Assembly (NCBI GenBank): GCA_964016885.1
Contig: OZ024758.1
Location: 15,934,001 to 15,998,000 of the forward strand
DNA length: 64,000 bases
Source of the DNA: Eledone cirrhosa
Taxonomy: Eukaryota
Direction: 5' to 3'
Of this stretch, positions 3,701 through 62,874 are shown piece by piece. The translations under genes were made by a program, and so were the position numbers. The notes under the pieces are model-generated. The model worked only from the letters and a program-made list of their open reading frames with translations. It searched no databases and was not told the DNA's origin. Numbering within the stretch: position 1 is the stretch's first letter; the number at the start of each line of letters is the position of its first letter.

Positions 3701-5161
3701 ATACCTTTATCAGCCGAAGAATTACAAATGTGTGATAAAGAGACAACTCCTCTAACACCTTTATATTTAGGTGATCAGTCCAACACAAATGTAAGTATTT
3801 TATAGGAAATATAATGGTTTCTTATATAGGCACAAGGCCAGCAATTTTTGGGGAGAGGAAAGTCAATTAAATCCACCCGTGCGTGACTGGTACTTTATTT
3901 TATCGACCCTGTATGGCTGAAAGGAAAAGTTAACCATGGTGGGATTTGAACTCAGAGCATAAAGGGCCATAAATCTATGCTGCCAAGTATGGCATCCGAC
4001 CCATCTACCGATACTGCTGGTTTCTGATTTAGGCACAAAGCCAACAATTTTGGTGAGAAGGGTAACTCGATTAAATCGGCTCCAGTACATTACTGGTACT
4101 TGGGCTTAACCTGTGAGTATAAATAATATCGCTGAAGCTCACAGAAGAGATGATGAAGGACCGTGAGGAATGGAGAGATACTGTTCTGAATAGGACCTGT
4201 CCCATTCTTGCAAGCAGGGGAAAATGGACGTAAAATGATGATGATGATGTTTATAACAATTACTTCATACTATTTATGAGACACTTTTGTTTTGTTTCTT
4301 CTTCCAGGCAAAAGTAGTTTATCAAGGTGAACGTCGTAAAAACCGAGAAGATTTTAGTCTACAAATGTATGAAGATGAAGTCAAGGTAAATAAATAAATT
4401 CTATTTCTTATATAAAAGTTGTTGTTTTTCCTTCATAGATTCTCTACTTTCTATATTTTCTTGGTAAAAATATGAATATGTTACTTATTAGCATAACTTT
4501 CTGACTACTTTGACTCTGCTAATTCATATCATATCATACACAGGTTCTATTACTACTACTACTATCATCACTACCACCTTCACCATCATCACCACCACCA
4601 CTACTACAATCACCACCATCATCATCACTATCATCACCATCACCATCATCTTTATCATCACCACCACCACCATCACCTTTATCATCACCACCACCACCAT
4701 CACCACTACTACAATCACCACCATCATCACTATCATCACCATCATTACCACCATCACCATCATCACCACCACCACCATCACCACTACTACAATCACCACC
4801 ATCATCATCACTATCATCACCATCATTACCACCATCACCATCATCTTTATCATCACCACCACCATCATCATCACTATCATCACCATCATTACCACCATCA
4901 CCACCATCATCATCACTATCATCACCATCATTACCACCATCACCATCATCTTTATCACCACCACCACCATTATCACTATCACCTTTAAATATCTGCTTTT
5001 ATTTTATTTCACAGAATTGGATAGAGGAAGAAGTGAGTGAACGAAAGCATCTCATAAATTATATGAAGAACCTTCAGCAAAGGAGCCGAGCTAATTCTCT
5101 CAACTGTGAAGATTTGTCTTCATTTGACCATGGAACTAGACGTCTGTCCCTCTCTTTATAA
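754..5161 (+). CDS. TPCN1: Two-pore calcium/sodium channel 1, 3' part (last 6 coding exons; 5' part lies outside the window)
   Basis: Exons 754-800, 1138-1206, 1978-2068, 3678-3790, 4308-4385 and 5015-5161 (TAA). All have AG/GT boundaries and the frame is continuous: VTLFELTIVNNWFIIM|EGYANTVSEWVRLYFMMFYIVSM|VVMNIVVAFVLDAFLFRIQYRR...YQGERRKNREDFSLQMYEDEVKNWIEE. This matches the TPC domain-II pore helix, VNNW filter, S6 and TPC1-type C-tail. Confidence 0.9.
2393..3297. repeat. Tandem duplication containing (CAC/CAT)n low-complexity tracts
   Basis: TTCCTGGTGCCAACCCTTTTAGTTG...CATTAATTGCCCCAGTTCTTCACAAGATAG...GCCTGGAGAAGTCTT occurs twice (~2395-2967 and ~2967-3297). Confidence 0.9.
4550..4983. 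repeat. (CAT/CAC)n compound microsatellite
   Basis: Trinucleotide tract in the last TPC1 intron. Confidence 0.95.
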
Positions 5162-6828
5162 CTGACCAAAGATCTATTTTTGTGTTATATACATCATCAT
5201 CATCATCGTATGTCAATTTTTTCCATACTTACATTAGTCAGACTGGCCATCTTCAGCACAACCTGCCTCAACTCATTATATTCCACCTTAGTCATCTCTT
5301 CTGTTAGATTCAGTTATTTTGAAATCAGCTATTACCACTTCTGTTCAGGTTTTCCTTGGTTTTCTTCACCCCCCCCCCCCCCCCTCCTTCCTCACAACCC
5401 ACCCACTTCGCTGGCATCTTTTGCCACTTCTTCACTCAATAATCATCATATTGTTTGTAATAATTCTATTTATTTCATCCTCATTGATTGAATAATACCC
5501 CTGCTCACCATTACATTATGTTAAAATCATTTTATAGTTATACAAATTCAAATAAGTTTAAAGATTTAGAAGTCTGACAATGCGTGAGAGATTAAAAGTG
5601 CCAAGGTAATAGGAATTATAGAGAGTAAAAGGACTGATAAAAGAGTGAGACAATAGAATTTTACCTTAGCTAAGGTAAAATTCTATCATTCTCACTCTTT
5701 TATTTTCTCTAATTCTTATTATCTTGCACGCATTGTAGGGCTTCCAAATATTTAAACTTATTTAAATTTGTATTTCTTATTCCACAATGCTTCAAGTAAA
5801 CTATAACACTTTGTTATTTTATAGTTGTTTTGTTCAGTTTTCTCATCAGATATAATATATGCCCTATGTTTCTCAAGGAAACATGGTTGTGTGGGTGAGG
5901 AGTTTGGCAACTATGTAACTTTATGTTCATTTCCACTGTGTAGCATCTTAGTCAAGTCATCTTCTACATTAGCCGTGGGTTGACCAATGTATATACATAT
6001 ACCTATATATATACACATACCTATATATATATATATTTATATATATGGGTACAAGCTGAAGCATATAGACAATATGCCCCCACACCCCCCACCGCAAGGT
6101 GGTCGTGGAGGTGCCACGGAAAAAAGTACCCAGCACTCACTGTAAATGAGGTTGGTGTTAGGAAGGGCATCCAGCTGTAGAAACCAAGCCAAATCAGTTC
6201 CTGTATGAGCAAGGCATGGTCAGCCGACCAGACACTGCCCACAACAGGACAACCCGTCTAACCCATGCTAGTAAAACGTAAAACGGTGATGATGAGTCCA
6301 CTCTGTAAAGTGGTTGTGCTGGTGTCATGACAAAGAGCACTCAGTCTACTCTGTAAGGTGGTAGTGCGGCTGCCACAAAAAAAAAAAAAGAAGCTTCCGG
6401 TACACATTGTAAAGAGGTTGATGTAAGGAAAACATCAGACTGTAGAAAACCAAGTGGAAATCGGAGTATATGAGCAAGACATGGTCATCTTGCAGTTGAA
6501 TGTACAGCTCTTTACTGTGTGATTTCTTCCATGCTGGCATGGATTAGTAGATAAGTCTACATGATCATATTTCTTCAGTTCTCTCTACTTGGTTAATCTT
6601 GGATTTTTATGTCATATATTCCCCCTCCATAACCACACATGCATTTGTATCTGTGTGTATATCATGACTCATTCACTGTTTATTTTCCTTACATTTGTAC
6701 ATTATTCTATGTACTATACATGCACCTTTGATGAGTTGTAGTACACCTGAGCACTGTACATAATAATTTCCATTATTATTATTATATATATATATATATA
6801 TAAATAATAATTTCAATTATTATTATAT

Positions 6829-7013
6829 GTGGATTGGCAGTATCGGTAGAGGGTCGGACGCCATGCTTTCCAGCATAGTTACGTCCCTTTACGATCTGAG
6901 TTCAAATCCCGCCGAGGTTGACTTTGCCTTTCATCCTTACGGGGTCGATAAAATAAAGTACCAGTAATGCACTGGATAATTGCTGGTCTTGTGCCTAAAG
7001 TAGAAACAATTAT
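6829..7013 (+). mobile_element. tRNA-derived SINE family A (Deu/Nin-like core)
   Basis: A box TGGCAGTATCGG, B box GAGTTCAAATCC, core CTTTGCCTTTCATCCTTACGGGGTCGATAAAATAAAGTACCAG. Many similar copies: 1231-1420(-), 1572-1760(+), 11332-11955 (x3), 25790-26150 (-, x2), 37786-37980(-), 39034-39221, 48345-48528, 59812-60008, 61573-61738. Confidence 0.85.
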
Positions 7014-7192
7014 TATATATATATATATATATAAATAATAATTTCAATTATTATTATATATATATATATATATATATGTTAAGTATTTCCGAAGAAAAAA
7101 AGAGTGCTCTATATTTAAAACAGAGTTATTTAATAAGAAAATATATAACACAATATATAACTACTCCAGATAGAGGGGTTAATAGAAAACCC

Positions 7193-7260
7193 TTCTGTCT
7201 GATGAGTGAACTAGACATATGTTAATATTGTCTAGGGTCCTGAAACCTTTGGTAATAGAG
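7193..7260 (+). ncRNA. Type I hammerhead ribozyme motif (helix II base degenerate)
   Basis: TTCTGT-CTGATGA (7199-7205), helix II (CTAGACA/TGTCTAG), GAAA (7242-45), CC-TTT-GG-TA, then ATAGAG. Helix I is 6 bp with G-U pairs; GUA site ends at 7254. Confidence 0.55.
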
Positions 7261-7311
7261 TAGTTATATATTGTGTTGTTCACTTTTTAATTAAATATAT
7301 ATATATATATT

Positions 7312-7760
7312 TATACCATGATATTAAATAAATGGAAACTATATTTATAAAACCATATTTATTTTATATATTTCAAGGGCAACCAAGACAACATTGGTGC
7401 GCTTTCATCAGATAAAATACAAAGTTTGTTTTATAAATAGAGACATACCCATGAAAATTCTACCTTACCGGTTGGAAATTCACTGAATTCAGTGAATTTC
7501 CGACCGGTAAGGTAGAATTTTCATGGGTATGTCTCTATTTATAAAACAAACTTTGTATTTTATCTGATGAAAGCGCACCAATGTTGTCTTGGTTGCCCTT
7601 GAAATATATATAATAAAATAAATATGGTTTTATAAATATAGTTTCCATTTATTTAATATCATGGTATATTTACTCTAGTAACTTGTTGAGTGCTCTAAAT
7701 CAGTTATAAACATTTATGTTTGTTGGACTTCCAACAAATTAAATACAACTTCCATATCAT
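7312..7760 (+). mobile_element. Penelope-like/retrozyme-type element with tail-to-tail inverted arms (palindrome 7312-7668)
   Basis: ~176-bp arms centred on GAATTC (7485-90) and adjacent to (TA)n. It contains the hammerhead motif and ends in a TTGTTGAGTGC-containing tail. Confidence 0.55.
7556..7620 (+). ncRNA. Minimal type I hammerhead ribozyme motif
   Basis: Helix I TATTTTAT (7556-63) pairs with ATAAAATA (7613-20). Core CTGATGA at 7564-70. Helix II AAG-GCA-CCAA/TTGG-TGC-CTT. GAAA at 7601-04. Short palindromic helix III TATATA. Cleavage triplet AUA ends at 7612. Confidence 0.7.
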
Positions 7761-8285
7761 CATCATCATTTTATGTCCGCTCTTGCAAGAGTGGGACGGG
7801 TCTTATTCAGCACAGCATCTCTCCACTTGTCACGGTCCTTCGTCATCTCCACCGTGAGCTTCAGCGATCTGAGGTCTGTTCTCACCACCTCTGCCCATGT
7901 TTTTCGTGGTCTACCTCTACCACATCTTCCTTCAACTGGTATTTCCTGGCACTTCTTTATCCATCGGTCATCCTCCATGCGCATCACATGTCCATACAAC
8001 CTCAGTCTCCTCTCCCGTACGCTACATTCTATCCCTCTCAGACACAGTTTCTCTCTCAACACATTCATGCTGGGTCATTCATGTTCATTGACACTGCACA
8101 TCCAACGGATCATGCCTGCCTCATTTCTCTCCAGCCGTCGCATATCCTCTGCAGTTGCTGCCCATGTCTCACTACCATGCAACATCGTGCTCCTCACACA
8201 GGCATCATATAACCGGCCTTTCGTATGCAGGGAGAAACCCTTCTTCGTCAGCAGAGGAAGCAGCTCCCTAAACTTCTTCCAACCC
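7760..8285 (-). mobile_element. RTE-clade LINE 3' fragment
   Basis: GWKKFRELLPLLT..KGRLYDACVRSTMLHGSETW...RRLRLYGHVMRM...GRGRPRKTW, followed by a (TGA)n tail. Other copies at 587-735, 4130-4250, 10870-10980, 46587-46907 (+) and 50818-51125 (-). Confidence 0.88.
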
Positions 8286-9124
8286 AATTTATATATATTC
8301 TTCTCTAGTCATAATGAAATATCTTTATCTCAAAGCTACTTCATTCACTGTTTGCTTGCTCATATGAACCCAATGATGTTTCTAGTCACAAGTTGATTTC
8401 TCATACCTGATCTGACAGGGATTTAAATTCTATAACGATTAGATCATATCAAATAATATTGTTATCATCATCATCGTTTTCACAGCTCTAGCACCAGTCC
8501 TTCATAGGCTGACCAAGATACTCTCATGGAATGCACCAAATGAGATTTATTTCTCAACATAATCCTTGGAAAGAAACAATGCAGTTATTAATAAGAGATG
8601 AAATTAATGCATGCAAGATTTTACAGCTCTAGCATCAATTCTTCATAGGATGACCAAGATACTCTCATGGAATTACCAAATGAGATTTATTTTTCAACAT
8701 AATCCTTGGAAAGAAACATTGCAGTTATTAATAAGAAGAGTTGAAATTAATGCATACAAGATTTCACAGCTCTAGCATCAATCCTTCATAGTCAGCTTAT
8801 GAACTTTTCAGCCACCCTAGTGTGTTTGTTTCTAATGTGGTCTTTGTATTACTCCTCAAATACCTGGTAAAATTACTCTCTCTCTCTTTCTCTCTTTGTC
8901 GACAAAATGAATAAATATATTTTTATAATGAATTTGAGTTCTGAATTCTGTGAACAAAAATATTTTTATATTTACATTTAGAATTTAAACAAAACTGTAA
9001 ATAATTTAAATATCTAATAAAGAATTTACAAATTTGAAGACCACAACCATTTGTAAAATGTAATTTTGTATGTTGATCTTATAAAAGATGTTTCTTATAT
9101 GATGAGATGATTTATTTCTGTAAG

Positions 9125-10197: not shown

Positions 10198-12770
10198 TTA
10201 GTTCACTTCTTCAGGTTCAGGCTCTGGTTTATTGAACTGGTCTTCAGTTATTTCTGTATGATTATTGTAGTTCTCCATCACAACGCCTGCCAATTTCTCA
10301 AGATTGCAGTCAGCCAGGGCCGTTGTAAGAAGAGTTACCTTCTCTTTAGGTTTGTTGTTTTCTTTTGACCGGTACCAATTAAAAAGTACGCTCTTAGACA
10401 GTTGATAGATTTCTCTCTCACCAGCATCTCTAAGACCATACTTCCCACATATCCCCAACACATAATTTATTATGGTTGTATTGGAGATGTTTAACAGCAT
10501 TCCAAGTTGAATTGCATCAACGCCATCTTTAACTTGTTTCGCCAACAGAGTTAAGCTATTCTCGCATATAATAACAGCTCTGTCAATAGTTGGCGGAGTC
10601 TCTGAAAAAAATATATAGAAGAAAGGCTAAATAGTCAGAGATTAATTCTTTTATTAGTATAAAATGGTGGCATTACAAAGAGCATCCAGCTGTAGAGACC
10701 AAGCCAAAATCAGTTTCGGTATGAGCAAAACATGGTTACCTGACCTAGCATTGCCCACAACAGGACAACTTGTCTAACCCATGTTAGCGTGGAAAAATGG
10801 ACGTAAAACGGTGATTATGATTTCTAAAGAAAAATATTGCCTATTATTTTCAAGTCATTTTGAAAATAATAGGAGATGATGAAGGACCGTGACAAGTGGA
10901 GAGCTGCTGTGCTGAATAGGACCTGTCCCACCCTTGCAAGCAGGGAAAAGCGGACATAAAATGATGATGATGATGATGAAGGATTTGATAAATAAAATAG
11001 TTTGGAACATAACAAATGTTCTTACATAAAATTATGATGGAAGATTTTTAGATTACTATAAACAGCTTAGTATCACAGAATCAGGGGCAGTTTACAGTGC
11101 CAAATTTACCATTGTGTTTAGATGTGCTTAAGCACAGGGACCTGTTGGCCAGGGGGTTGGCCCATCTTCCTGCTGGACAGAATAGAGAAGGCGGTTCCCT
11201 GGAGGATGGTGAGGGAGATGCGCTGGAAGAGCCATTCCAGCTCGCGAGGCTCACACCTGCGGGGAGACTAATCTGTATTGATGGTGGTGAACAGGGAGGT
11301 GGCCCTAGGGCCAAGGACAACAAAAGTCTCCAGTATCGGTAGAGCGTCGGACAACATGCTTTGCGGCATAAAGTTACAGCCCGTTACGTTCTGAGTTCAA
11401 ATCCCACCAAGGTTAGCTTTGCCTTTCATACTTACGGGGAGGGGGGGGGGGGTCGATAAAATAAAGTACCAGTAACACACTGGGGTCAATTTAACCGCCT
11501 TTTCCTTCCCCCCAAATTACTGGCCTTGTGCTTATACTAGAAATCATTATTATCTCACGAGGGCTTGGGATTGGCAGTATCGGTAGAAGGTCGGACGCCA
11601 TGTTTTCTAGCATAGTTACGTCCCTTTACGTTCTGAGTTCAAATCCCACCAAGGTTAACTTTGCCTTTCATCCTTACGGGGTCGATAAAATAAAGTACCA
11701 GTAATGCACTGGTATAATTGCTGGCCTTGTGCCAAAAGTAGAAACAATTATTATCTCACGAGGGCGGTGGATTGGCAGTATCGGTAGAGAGTTGGACGCC
11801 ATGCTTTGCAGCAAAGAGTTACAACCCTTTACGGTCTGAGTTAAAATCTTGCCGAGGTTAACTTTGCCTTTCATCCTTACGAAGTCAATAAAATAAAGTA
11901 CCAGTAATACACTGGAAATAATTGGCTTTGTGCCAAAGTAGAAATAATTATTATCTCACGCATTTTTATCAGAAGAAATTAAAAACACGACCATACTAAC
12001 ATATTTAGGGTCAATAGAAAATCAGTATAGTAAAAACCAAAGCACAAGTATATTGAAACAAATTATTTTCCACATTTTTGGAGGGGCTTAAGCTCTAAAA
12101 CCCCATAATGTGCTGGAAGGCTCGGATAGATAAGATAATTGTCGCAGAAGTTAGGTGGACTAAACATTTTGTTAAACGTATATAAAAAAGGAGATATGGT
12201 GGTATGACTAGACATTTACTTACAATTGTCGATAACTTTATTAATGTCTTTTGTGATTATGAAAACAGAAAGGGAAAGACTAGGGCTCTAGGGTCACAGA
12301 AGAATGACGAGGGGTAAGGATGATGGGCTCTGTGCTTAGGAGGCGGCGGTATTGGGGTTTACATATTTACGAAATTGTTAAATCGTAGCTAAAAAGATAT
12401 AAAATAATTAGTTCTGGTATATTTCGTTCGTCTCTAAGGTTTAAAATTTACTTATTTGTTTATTTGTGGGAATTTATCGTAAATTAGGTTTTGAGGTTTA
12501 AAAAAAAATATCTAAAAAAAGAAAACATATTTTATTTTATCAAGGTGTATGAAAATTTAATAATATAATTCATTGAACAATAATGATAAAGGTTTAAAAT
12601 TATTCTAATAATAATGATTTCTACTACAGGCACAAGGCCAGCAATTTTGGGAGGAGGGGGAAGTCGATTAAATCGACCCTAGAGTATTACTGGGGTGTTT
12701 TATTCTAATAATACATGTAACATTACTAACCTGCATCCGAATCACTAAACGTTACCGATTGTTGACGCAT
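10198..12770 (-). CDS. Small death-domain-like protein (~147 aa)
   Basis: Terminal exon 10601-10198 (acceptor ttttcag, stop TAA) encodes ...LLAKQVKDGVDAIQLGMLLNISNTTI...LSKSVLFNWYRS...VTLLTTALADCNLEKLAGVV, a death-fold helical pattern. A phase-compatible upstream exon 12770-12731 (MRQQSVTFSDSDA, donor gttagt) joins it. The N-terminus is uncertain; another donor ATG|gtaagt sits at 14690-14682. Confidence 0.6.
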
Positions 12771-34111: not shown

Positions 34112-34229
34112 ATGCTTACAGCACCTAGGTTTCCCAAGCGGTCACCCCATATAAGTATTAACTAGGCTCTACGTTGCTTAACTTCGGTGACCGGAGAACC
34201 GGTGTTTTCAGCGTGTTATGGCCGTAAAT
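34112..34229 (-). rRNA. 5S rRNA-like copy, probably a pseudogene
   Basis: Minus strand reads ATTTACGGCCATAACACGCTGAAAACACCGGTTCTC-CGGTCACCGAAGTTAAGCAACGTAGAGCCTAGTTAATACTTATATGGGGTGACCGCTTGGGAAACCTAGGTGCTGTAAGCAT. This is clearly metazoan 5S, but it has a small deletion near the GTCCGATC loop, substitutions in the box C region and no T4+ terminator. It is a solitary copy. Confidence 0.85.
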
Positions 34230-36714
34230 GATAATATATATATATAGGAAAAAGTATGACCCCGACGGCAGATCTCAAGGAGTTTCGACGGCTATTTCGG
34301 GACAGAAATAGCCGTCGAAACTTTTTCCTATTTCCCACTCTACTACCCTAAGTATTAAGTACTCTGGTGCGTTATGGTCCATCTGGTTCCATACCACGAT
34401 TCCTTTGTTACTGGCATTAGATTAACATCTACAGTACATTATATGTTTAAAAAAAGTGGGGTTGGGACCAGCTTTGCACTTTCGCCCTAGTTTCTTATTG
34501 TTGTTGTTGTTTAGCCCAAGGTCAGCGTAGACTGAGCATATCCATAATCAAAAACGTTACAGCAGTGATAATCCCATAATCTCTGTCCCAAGTATGCCCA
34601 GAACCCCAATATTTAGCGTATCCTCTCCTTTTTATGATGATAGGGTATGAATTAAGGAAGATTTAGCTGCTATTTCTAACAGGTCGAATGATCCTGTAGA
34701 GGTTCTCTCAACATTAGTTTTAGGTAGTGATATACAGCAAGAATTTTCTTTTGAATTTGCGAGAATATTAAAAAAAATACCATTGAAAAAATATATTTTT
34801 ACACTTTAATCTTAGAGTACAGCTACGTAAGGCAGACATAAACATCATTTTATATAAGATTCGCCATAGATAGACATAATCATCATAGTTTTAACGTATG
34901 TTCTTTCAAGTTGTCTTAGGATGGGTAGTTTTATAACGATAAATGATAATGAAAATTATTGTGTACAGTGCTCAGGTGCACTACAACTCACCAAAGGTGC
35001 ATGTATAATACATAGAATAATGTACAAATGTCAGGAAAGTGAACAGAGTATGAGTCATGATATACACACAGGAAACATGGATGTTTTGAAGGATGTAGTG
35101 TCTCGATAGTTAACAATTGATGCAGGTAGGTTTGTTCTACCTGTAACTCTGTAGATCCTCTATTAACCTGTGTGTAAAACCTAGAACAACAACAACAACA
35201 ACACTTTTGACATGCTTCTTACAAGTTACTGTTGCATAACAAAAGAACCCTCTGTTGCTCTTGGTAACGGAAGTAATAGTTGTCTAGACTTATTCGATCT
35301 TCTTTATTACTTTAACTATTATAACATTTTTTTTCTGCCAGGAGTTGCGACCAATAGATAGTATCAGCAATGGAAAGACCATTGGTTCAATTTGACGAGT
35401 TCCATCTTACTCGGTAAGCGAATAAGGTCAGAGATCTTGTCGATCGATCATCATCATCACCGGTTTACGTCCGTTCTTCCACGCTAACATGGGTTAGACG
35501 GGGGAACTGATTCTGGCCTGATTTCTTTCTTGATTTTTTGCCGTGGAATGATAGGGACTCCCAGTCCCTATCATCTCATTTCTACAGCTGAGTAAACTGG
35601 AGCAATAAAGTGAAATAAAGTGTCTTACTCAAGGAAACAACATATCACCCAGTCCGAGAATTGAACTCACAACCTTTCGATTGCAAGCCCAATGCTCTAA
35701 CCACTAAGCCATGCGACTTCATACACACATACACATACATATACATATATATATATAGGAAGTGTAACGTGCAGTTGCTGTAGGTTCACATGAGTGAGCA
35801 CTCTATGTGTAGTTTCCCATCAGTAGAGAGGTGTAGGACTAAGCAGAGTGTTCATTCTTTCATTACCACAGCAGAGGTCCAACGAGCTTTTGATTCCAGA
35901 GTCAGGCCAGATTGAACTCGAAATATTAGGACAGAAGAAAGAACAGCAACAACAAAAAACAAAACCAAGATTACTGGGTAATTTACTTTTTCGTTACCTC
36001 ATCTTACCATCCATTTTGCATTGTTTAACCTTCTATCTCTTTCCACATTATATATCATATACAATGCTTCAAGCACACTATAACATTTTATTAACCCTTT
36101 AGCATTTAAACTGGCTATATCCGACCTGTGTTCTTTCACCTCTTTCGCTTCAAACTGGCTGTAACCGGCCACTCATAATGATGTTAATGTATCTCAAAAT
36201 AAATAATATCAAAATCTGATAGATTTGATATTATGTGAGATAAAGCTTTTACCGTGAAAATATAATAGTAAATATAGAGTAATCTAATCTAATCTAATCT
36301 GGCCAAGTTTACACTCGCAAATAAGAACCAAGCTGCCCCTAGGAGCATTGGATTTGGTGTATTTCATATTTGTTTCAGTTGCTGAATACAATCAGAGGTT
36401 GCTGCTTCTCCTGAAGGTCAATAGCTCTCTTCTAACTTGAGCGGGAGTGCCTTTCCATTGTCAATTTACATTGATCATCTACAAAGCCACATTGTTCTCA
36501 GAACCACTTCAATGCATGCAGCTGGAACTACTGCCACCAATTGATTTGGCAGGGTTTTTTTTTTATATAGAGTAATGTAAATACTAAAGGGTTAAATATA
36601 GAGTAATGTAAATGCTAAAGGGTTAAAATAACTTTTGTTGTAAAATATAACAATAACATTAACAAAAAAGCAATTTGGATAAAAGCAGTTTAATTTTTCA
36701 ATGTTTCTATGTTG

Positions 36715-55982: not shown

Positions 55983-56881
55983 TGTGGATCGAAGTTGAAG
56001 AGACGTCAATATAGATTTTAACATTAAAACAACGTGATCCAGATGAAATATGTTAAAAAACAACAAAAACTAACAAGGGACATAACTCTATACTATTGAC
56101 TTCCTTTTCTTACTTCCAGTAATAGAAGTTGAATTATGTCACCGACCCTTCGCCGGTTTCGACGACGATTGTTTCAGTTGTTCGATCAACGGAACAGATA
56201 TAATTATCTATAAATAAATATATATATATATATATATACACCAGATCCAAACACAAAGGAACCAAATGCTCACCGTCACTACCTTCGTCTCTCCCGCCCT
56301 CCCCTGTCTCTCACTATTATGAGCAAATGGGGAGCCCACGCGCTGGTCACCTCGCGGCCCCGGTGCGCAGAATAGAGAAGGCTTTTCCCCGGAGGATGGT
56401 GAAGGAGACGCGTTGGAAGATCCATTTAAACAAAATCCAGTTAAGCAAAATTCACCGTCTAGCCATGGATGCAAAGTTTAACGGTCTACAATCCCCTCTT
56501 TTCCCCTTCTTTTTTTTTGTTATTGAAAGTAAAATTACAAATAGCAAATATATACGAGGCTCGGCTGAAAAGTTCATAGGTTGACCAAGATACTCTCATG
56601 AAATGACCAAATGAGGTTTATTTTTCAACGTAGTCCTTGGAAAGAAACAATGCAGTTATTAATAGGAAGAAGAGTTGAAATTAATGCATGCAAGATTTCA
56701 CGACGCTAGCATCACTCCATCATAGTCAACCTGTGAACTTTTCAGCCTATCCTCGTACCACCACCATTTCCACTACTACTATTAGCAACGAGGAAATGGT
56801 TTTGTTGACGCATGCGCACTGTGTTCAATTTGCCATGTGAATTTTTACCGTATTTTATGTCCCAAATTTATTTACACAAAC
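55983..56881. promoter_or_regulatory. Putative bidirectional promoter of PRMT7/CHCHD4 with an NRF1-like site
   Basis: The divergent ATGs are ~900 bp apart and CpG is locally retained. ACGCATGCGCA at 56808-56818 resembles the NRF1 consensus TGCGCATGCGCA. Confidence 0.5.
56552..56757. mobile_element. Tc1/mariner-type MITE (TA-CGAGG...CCTCG-TA)
   Basis: TIR CGAGG-N-GGCTGAAAAGTTCA/TGAACTTTTCAGCC-N-CCTCG with TA flanks. Relatives at 8480-8820, 27175-27245, 61830-62760 and 63710-63780. Confidence 0.75.
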
Positions 56882-61339: not shown

Positions 61340-61829
61340 CCTAAGCATTTAGTTAGCCAAATGAATTACAATTTTTATTTAATAACTCTGAAGTTTGTTG
61401 ATCGTTTTCAGGGCTATCAGATTTTATCTGCTAATGTCCTTGTTTTAGAGTCAAATATAGGTATTTGATTCCTTCTAAGTTTATTACCATTTAGTATCAG
61501 ACTAGCATGGCGTCCGAAGATACTATGGATAGATAATTGTGCCTAAAGTAGAAGCAATTATCTATCTATAGTATCTTCGGACGCCATGCTTTCCAGCATA
61601 GTTACGTCCCTTTACAATCTGAGTTCAAATCCCGCCGAGGTTGACTTTGCCTTTCATCCTTACGGGGTCGATAAAATAAAGTACCAGTAATGCATTGGGG
61701 TAATTGCTGGCCTTGTGCCTAAAGTAGAAGCAATTATCTATCTATAGTACATCTGGTTTTTCTGAATTAGGTTTCTTGCTCTGAAAAATAACAAAGAACA
61801 AGTTGGCTACAATTTTTGATTAACATGTA

Positions 61830-62758
61830 AAGGTCAGCTGAAAAGTTCATAGGCTGACTAAGATACTCTCATGGATTGACCAAATGGGGTTTAATTTTCA
61901 ACATAGTTCCTAGAAAGAAACAATGCAGTTATTAATAAGAAGTGTTGAGAGTCAGCTGAAAAGTTCATAGGCTGACTAAGATACTCTCATGGATTGACCA
62001 AATGAGGTTTAATTTTCAACATAGTTCCTAGAAAGAAACAATGCAGTTATTAATAAGAAGTGTTGAGAGTTGGCTGAAAAGTTCATAGGCTGACCAAGAT
62101 ACTCTCATGGAATGACCAAATGAGGTTTAATTTTCAACATAGTTCCTAGAAAGAAACAATGCAGTTATTAATAAGAAGTGTTGAGAGTTGGCTGAAAAGT
62201 TCATAGGCTGACCAAGATACTCTCATGGATTGACCAAATGAGGTTTAATTTTCAACATAGTTCCTAGAAAGAAACAATGCAGTTATTAATAAGAAGTGTT
62301 GAGAGTTGGCTGAAAAGTTCATAGGCTGACCAAGATACTCTCATGGAATGACCAAATGAGGTTTAATTTTCAACATAGTTCCTAGAAAGAAACAATGCAG
62401 TTATTAATAAGAAGTGTTGAGAGTTGGCTGAAAAGTTCATAGGCTGACCAAGATACTCTCATGGATTGACCAAATGAGGTTTAATTTTCAACATAGTTCC
62501 TAGAAAGAAACAATGCAGTTATTAATAAGAAGTGTTGAGAGTTGGCTGAAAAGTTCATAGGCTGACCAAGATACTCTCATGGAATGACCAAATGAGGTTT
62601 AATTTTCAACATAGTTCCTAGAAAGAAACAATGCAGTTATTAATAAGAAGTGTTGAGAGTTGGCTGAAAAGTTCATAGGCTGACCAAGATACTCTCATGG
62701 AATGACCAAATGAGGTTTAATTTTCAACATAGTTCATAGAAAGCAACAATGCAGTTAT
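61830..62758. repeat. 118-bp tandem satellite (~8 copies) derived from a mariner MITE
   Basis: GCTGAAAAGTTCATAGG recurs every 118 bp (e.g. 62073, 62191, 62309). Confidence 0.93.
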
Positions 62759-62874
62759 ACCAATACATATATACCGATGCAAGCTTGGAAAAGTGGATGG
62801 CTTATCCTCAAGAAGTTACAACGTAACAACTGTGTATAAACAACTTATCTTCTGCAATATATGCATATATATAT

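Follow-up and report, generated by a model that had tools for sequence, protein, structure and literature searches.

The window is a 64,000-nucleotide stretch of the Eledone cirrhosa genome. It carries a TPC1-like gene and, beyond the stop codon of this gene, a compact region (7077-7752) which contains two hammerhead motifs, A and B. The features involved are as follows.

5015-5161, plus strand: last coding exon of the TPC1-like gene, from its translation, with the stop codon TAA at 5159-5161
7077-7187, minus strand: family A inverted arm, a reverse copy of the element 3' end plus a terminal extension, from alignment to locus L114
7188-7295, plus strand: family A direct arm, read as the 5'-truncated 3' end of a Hydra-like Penelope element
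7193-7260, plus strand: predicted type I hammerhead, motif A (core CUGAUGA at 7199-7205, GAAA at 7242-7245)
7296-7311, no strand: (TA)n tract between the insertions, from the sequence
7312-7487, minus strand: family B inverted arm with a minus-strand hammerhead copy, from gapped alignment to the right arm
7488-7752, plus strand: family B direct arm, read as the 3' pLTR of a Hydra-clade Penelope-like element
7556-7620, plus strand: predicted type I hammerhead, motif B (core at 7564-7570, GAAA at 7601-7604)
8800-9120, no strand: AT-rich stretch with a single genome match (AATAAA at 8910 and 9016 on the plus strand and at 9111 on the minus strand)

The TPC1-like gene and its stop codon are supported. 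Two-pore channel 1 in PDB is hit by the exon at 1978-2067 (E 4e-4) and, weakly, by an exon further upstream (E 0.18). A neighbouring gene falls in a Mollusca cluster, which together with the repeat make-up points to an octopus-like mollusc as the probable host. Both motifs lie on the TPC1 strand, 2.0-2.4 kb beyond the stop, in agreement with the first-pass annotation, which had placed them about 2 kb downstream in the sense orientation. It had also pointed to AATAAA in unique sequence at about 8900-9020, and these hexamers are present at 8910 and 9016 where it put them, with one genome match. Judged from the sequence, 8800-9120 is a candidate polyA region of either TPC1 or a convergent gene. 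AATAAA is weak evidence for a TPC1 polyA site, because it occurs six times in 5162-9100 where 3.7 are expected, and because polyA hexamers are found earlier, at 5591 (ATTAAA) and 6952. Four sequencing runs of unrecorded kind, present as contigs only, cover 4990-8470; their depth is low and even over unique sequence and rises very high over repeats. This pattern looks like genomic DNA, so the runs are uninformative about where the UTR ends. A literature search found no report of a ribozyme in a TPC1 UTR, and the word 'hammerhead' does not occur in the available text of an octopus repeat annotation (PMC13282606).

Several other features were seen in the window. A 142-codon open frame on the minus strand (10201-10626) converges on TPC1 and ends near 10200; it is likely a last exon with death-domain-like features (Atlas 0.87-0.88, a lead only), and has no Pfam Death match. 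There is a single 5S rRNA match at 34113-34229 (80 bits) and a tRNA-like match at 35650-35713, which is probably a SINE head. A repeat of 118-140 nt is present at 8478-8791, 56556-56669 and 61719-62844; it is dispersed in two of these places and forms a tandem array (98% identity) in the third. A LINE-like 3' end with a (CAT)n tail (7753-8290, minus strand) abuts the family B end.

Motifs A and B both contain the type I core CUGANGA ... GAAA ... UH. The core columns are kept among the family copies, and both cores are intact in the window. In motif A the cleavage triplet is GUA, with a predicted cut after 7254; helix I (7193-7198/7255-7260) has 6 bp including two G-U pairs, and helix III is ACC-UUU-GGU. 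In motif B the triplet is AUA, with a predicted cut after 7612; helix I (7556-7563/7613-7620) has 8 bp and no mismatch, and helix III is the palindromic AUAUAUAU. Helix II is closed by a pair other than G10.1-C11.1: G-U or A-U in copies of A and A-U in those of B (G-U and A-U, respectively, in the window). Coordinates, cores and triplets match the two plus-strand type I hammerheads described in the first-pass annotation at 7193-7260 and 7556-7620, and the perfect 8-bp helix I reported there at the AUA site is present in B. The short palindromic helix III holds for B; helix III of A has a UUU loop and is not a true palindrome.

The same annotation had proposed searches with Rfam hammerhead models and with a motif descriptor. 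The Rfam models give no match at gathering thresholds and none at E<=5 on 6500-8500. Rfam matches to FasX and to microRNAs fall below gathering; they reflect the palindrome and were set aside. A relaxed descriptor, run over both strands of the whole 64 kb, finds exactly two sites, A and B, whereas 60 block shuffles yield 0.017 on average; the contrast is flattered, because the descriptor was composed after the motifs had been seen. A stricter descriptor finds B only and misses A. Taken in isolation, motifs A and B have no folding advantage over shuffled sequence (z +0.16 to -0.80). With no Rfam match and shuffle-like folding, the case for the fold therefore rests on the families and not on single-sequence energy.

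Alignments were made from 27 rows of the 43 collected for family A, leaving out near-duplicates and badly broken rows, and from 25 of the 54 collected for family B, 24 of them distinct. The predicted helices I, II and III, of which helix I is open-ended, pair in 90.8% of cells in A and 96.1% in B (24 distinct rows), compared with 32-54% in slid controls. Four pairs in A and three in B have changed on both sides, and such two-sided changes occur in helix II of both families. Covariation in A is weak: its score is reached in 18 of 500 shuffles, and the copies are related. Pairing among the copies thus supports the structure without proving it, because the copies are related. Most copies of both families have a C-C mismatch in helix II, which is U-C in the A copy of the window. 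The mismatch falls at column 28/61 of alignment A1 and column 32/56 of alignment A2, at distances from the core which differ between the families. The hammerhead fold appears to have been maintained by selection in the parent elements and not at the window locus.

Each motif has an inverted copy of its own element end upstream of it. These fold-back arms were absent from the first-pass account. The family A inverted arm lacks 56 nt, the hammerhead core among them, when aligned to L114; its predicted pairing partners are 7188-7201 and about 7259-7281, and the pairing involves the first part of the core and helix I on its two strands. In family B, motif B lies in the right arm of a palindrome at 7312-7668, whose 176/181-bp arms differ by a single mismatch and an indel of 5 nt. 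The minus-strand hammerhead in 7312-7487 lacks 5 nt at helix III and the cleavage triplet. The palindromic part of the direct arm extends to 7668 and the remainder is found on the direct side only. Inverted arms of at least 30 nt are present at 8 of 20 B loci, counting the window, and at 13 of 15 A loci, a figure inflated by a query which contained the arm. Further TA repeats are found at 7014-7077 (TRF), and insertion into (TA)n is seen in the window and at most of the loci printed for both families. An assembly artefact is unlikely, as other copies have the same fold-backs with their own junctions. One contig pair from the sequencing runs, possibly from the source sample, spans 7087-7223 without differences; the centre of the B palindrome is bridged by none of the pieces listed (31-letter rule).

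Motifs A and B mark the 3' ends (pLTRs) of two separate dispersed repeats. The family B arm has at least 51 matches when 40 of 1,477 first-look genome candidates are scored, the top ones at 95-97% identity, and the family A region has at least 55 when 40 of 1,236 are scored; both counts are lower bounds. In 8 of the 10 long loci of family B, the repeat lies downstream of a reverse transcriptase (RT) ORF and shares its strand. At L055 it occurs at 1718-1940 and 5550-5710, flanking a 743-aa frame which contains RW, DKT, CxCX5C, CxxC and CxH motifs and a C-terminal endonuclease-like region. DKT and the CxCX5C linker are both found in L053, L054, L055 and L056, and the N-terminal RWK position reads RWR in L055 and RWC in L054. 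The direct arm in the window aligns with the 3' end of L056. The Naiad clade was considered for B after a first ORF was found without an endonuclease (L016/L036); it was rejected as fuller copies show the C-terminal endonuclease.

The parent of family A was reached by walking upstream in three steps. L114 and L122 have a related ORF end (CxCX5C, CxxC, CxH), a common 3' region and then motif A, all on one strand. Among 15 loci found with the family A protein, four have motif A within 1.5 kb; it is downstream on the same strand in two of these, and the other two have only an inverted upstream copy. In L114, L122, L130 and L137 the motif is linked to the 3' end of an apparent RT-endonuclease ORF with CxCX5C. 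DKT is degenerate (D*T or GKT) in the family A copies seen and intact in L142, a more distant relative. Two other candidate parents were dismissed. An RT adjoining L024 lies downstream of the element end, and among 25 loci with the L081 protein, motif A is present only at L081's own place. L081 also holds, at 1160-2960 on the minus strand, a Penelope-like fragment with its own inverted arm inside the (TA)n of a family A 3' region; Penelope ends nest within one another's TA tracts.

When the two long family B ORFs are scanned with Pfam, neither an RT nor a GIY-YIG domain is recognised. The C-terminal CxxC and CxH of the A and B proteins were spotted by eye, with no Pfam GIY-YIG match for B. The assignment to a clade rests on motifs compared by eye with the available parts of PMC8557442, because Pfam found neither domain. 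Read in this way, families A and B trace to ORFs which apparently encode an RT and a C-terminal endonuclease with Hydra-clade motifs, and the link to Penelope-like elements made in the first-pass annotation is right for both motifs. A third Hydra-like family (G000:C1:437202004-437213040 and others) has tandem copies every 3,531 bases. These bear identical 784-aa open frames, suggesting recent activity. Its 60,933 first-look candidates are a count common to related families.

The penalty for cleavage was taken as the energy needed to force helix I with a free core, in an equilibrium model without proteins or editing. It is predicted to be 22.2 kcal/mol for A and 81.3 kcal/mol for B in context, compared with about 2.5 kcal/mol for the isolated motifs; the open-fold probabilities in context are 2e-16 and 5e-58. 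A transcript starting at 7488 or later, inside the B palindrome, would leave motif B as free as when isolated (ddG 2.1-2.6). In RNA made from TPC1, the upstream antisense arm would be transcribed first and would sequester the core together with helix I; cleavage is therefore predicted not to occur. Dimers offer little relief. Helix III has only 2-3 bp and homodimer duplexes reach -5.1 and -3.2 kcal/mol. An A-B heterodimer is ruled out from sequence, since the helix III strands differ. Neither helix III has a further copy of itself in cis, and the locus has no head-to-tail tandem of one hammerhead unit, a trait of non-LTR retrozymes. In the available parts of the published work, a Schistosoma Penelope-like hammerhead is uncleaved as a monomer and weak as multimers (PMC4209133), and an anole one requires protein and has no cleaved reads in RNA-seq (PMC11167929). 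Cleavage of TPC1 mRNA by A or B is thus unlikely under this model, given the masking, the lack of a dimer partner in cis and the weak or protein-dependent activity of published hammerheads of this type. Both ribozymes are likely silent at the locus. Dimer action, which the first-pass annotation gave as frequent for such hammerheads, finds no partner here, and its idea of self-cleaving RNAs within TPC1 mRNA is not supported, both motifs being predicted to be sequestered by the inverted arms (ddG 22 and 81 kcal/mol).

The reading which best fits the locus, and which is very probably right, is that 7077-7752 consists of 3'-end fragments of two Penelope-like families in (TA)n, each with its hammerhead predicted to be masked by its own inverted copy. 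The region would have arisen by two independent 5'-truncated insertions into one (TA)n tract, each accompanied on its 5' side by an inverted copy, as Penelope elements typically are. The motifs are then likely ordinary transposon debris and not an mRNA switch. It is much less probable, though still worth considering, that the cassettes are small non-autonomous fold-back elements which move again as units. The 40-nt A fold-back junction (7166-7205) occurs at exactly two genome sites, the other being G000:C19:15752190-15752229 (L145); they are 189 kb apart, on opposite strands, with no unique flank in common. L024, L027/L028 and L029 on contig C1 have another junction in common, and local copying may take in whole fold-back cassettes. 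However, the junction is individual in most of the copies seen, the same picture would result from gene conversion or from microsatellite-mediated copying, and the masking argument is unaffected.

Should transcription reach the region, the likelier effect would be a long double-stranded hairpin and not cleavage; within a UTR it would form a hairpin of about 176 bp. ADAR acts on long duplexes. It is therefore conceivable, if improbable, that the TPC1 3' UTR spans the region and that its product is a long hairpin, a substrate for A-to-I editing or Dicer, which lowers or alters the mRNA while the ribozymes remain idle. The predicted folding energy of the 561-nt region is -346.8 kcal/mol (z -36), the arms are near-perfect, and the single-match stretch with AATAAA lies downstream; but polyA hexamers are already present at 5591 and 6952, and a local hairpin function is not needed because many other copies have the same architecture. 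A view in line with the first-pass annotation, in which TPC1 mRNA is cut in vivo by at least one of the hammerheads as a co-opted control of stability or of the 3' end, like that of Clec2, is very improbable. It draws on the intact cores, triplets and helices I on the TPC1 strand, on the finding that the broken copies are those on the minus strand, and on the precedent of the Clec2 3' UTR hammerhead (PMC6155905, available text) and the tendency of exonic retrozymes towards 3' UTRs (bioRxiv 2026.07.22.740005, available text). The masking, the short helices III which cannot cross-pair and the published behaviour of Penelope-like hammerheads oppose it. A variant which joins the two ideas, equally far from being favoured, holds that both cassettes lie in the TPC1 3' UTR and that the antisense arms are locks, opened by A-to-I editing of the AU-rich duplexes or by a changed transcript start or processing, upon which a hammerhead cuts the mRNA. 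If this were true, fold-back Penelope insertions would be a genome-wide source of conditional, editing-gated ribozyme switches.

Hammerheads in the ends of Hydra-clade Penelope elements are already known, one of them from octopus, according to the available parts of PMC8557442. A and B appear to be two families not listed in those parts, with a C-C mismatch in helix II; they may already be named in Repbase or Dfam, and the supplements of bioRxiv 2026.07.22.740005 may list mollusc families. Six short strings searched for in the available PMC8557442 supplement have no match there, although line breaks can hide one. Masked insertions as transposon debris carry a practical warning: a hammerhead match near a gene of this genome should be folded together with the sequence on either side, since masking by an inverted insertion arm is frequent. 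The locus would matter if the hairpin sits in TPC1 mRNA and is edited or cleaved.

The closest known system is the Hydra clade (Craig et al. 2021, PMC8557442), which includes Hydra-1_Obim from Octopus bimaculoides. As far as the available parts of that paper describe it, the clade has, like A and B, a CxCX5C linker, (TA)n targets, a hammerhead near the 3' end with a short helix III, and inverted 5'-truncated copies such as Penelope-13_HM. Its DKT is found in B, and its C-terminal GIY-YIG endonuclease, which lacks CCHH, carries the CxxC and CxH that were read by eye in A and B. File S2 shows a U before GAA and a UUU loop III in several Hydra hammerheads; the hammerhead of Hydra-1_oBim given there is matched by neither A nor B. 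The families also differ from the clade in reading RWR or RWC for RWK in B, and in having a 3' region of more than 1 kb between ORF and pLTR. Minimal hammerheads of Penelope-like elements, in the available text of Cervera and de la Pena 2014 (PMC4209133), are likewise type I with a long helix II and a short helix III (palindromic in B), and occur mostly as isolated truncated copies and as opposite-strand pairs 100-700 bp apart. They close helix II with G10.1-C11.1, whereas A and B close it with A-U or G-U and have the C-C mismatch in most copies. Non-LTR retrozymes resemble the locus in being non-coding, with a type I hammerhead and kinship to Penelope-like pLTRs; however, they are head-to-tail tandems which permit dimers, whereas the copies here are inverted and the sense motifs come from different families. 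The rodent Clec2 3' UTR hammerhead likewise follows a protein-coding gene in sense orientation, but it is a discontinuous type III motif kept in several mammals, whereas A and B are type I motifs in abundant repeats with antisense arms.
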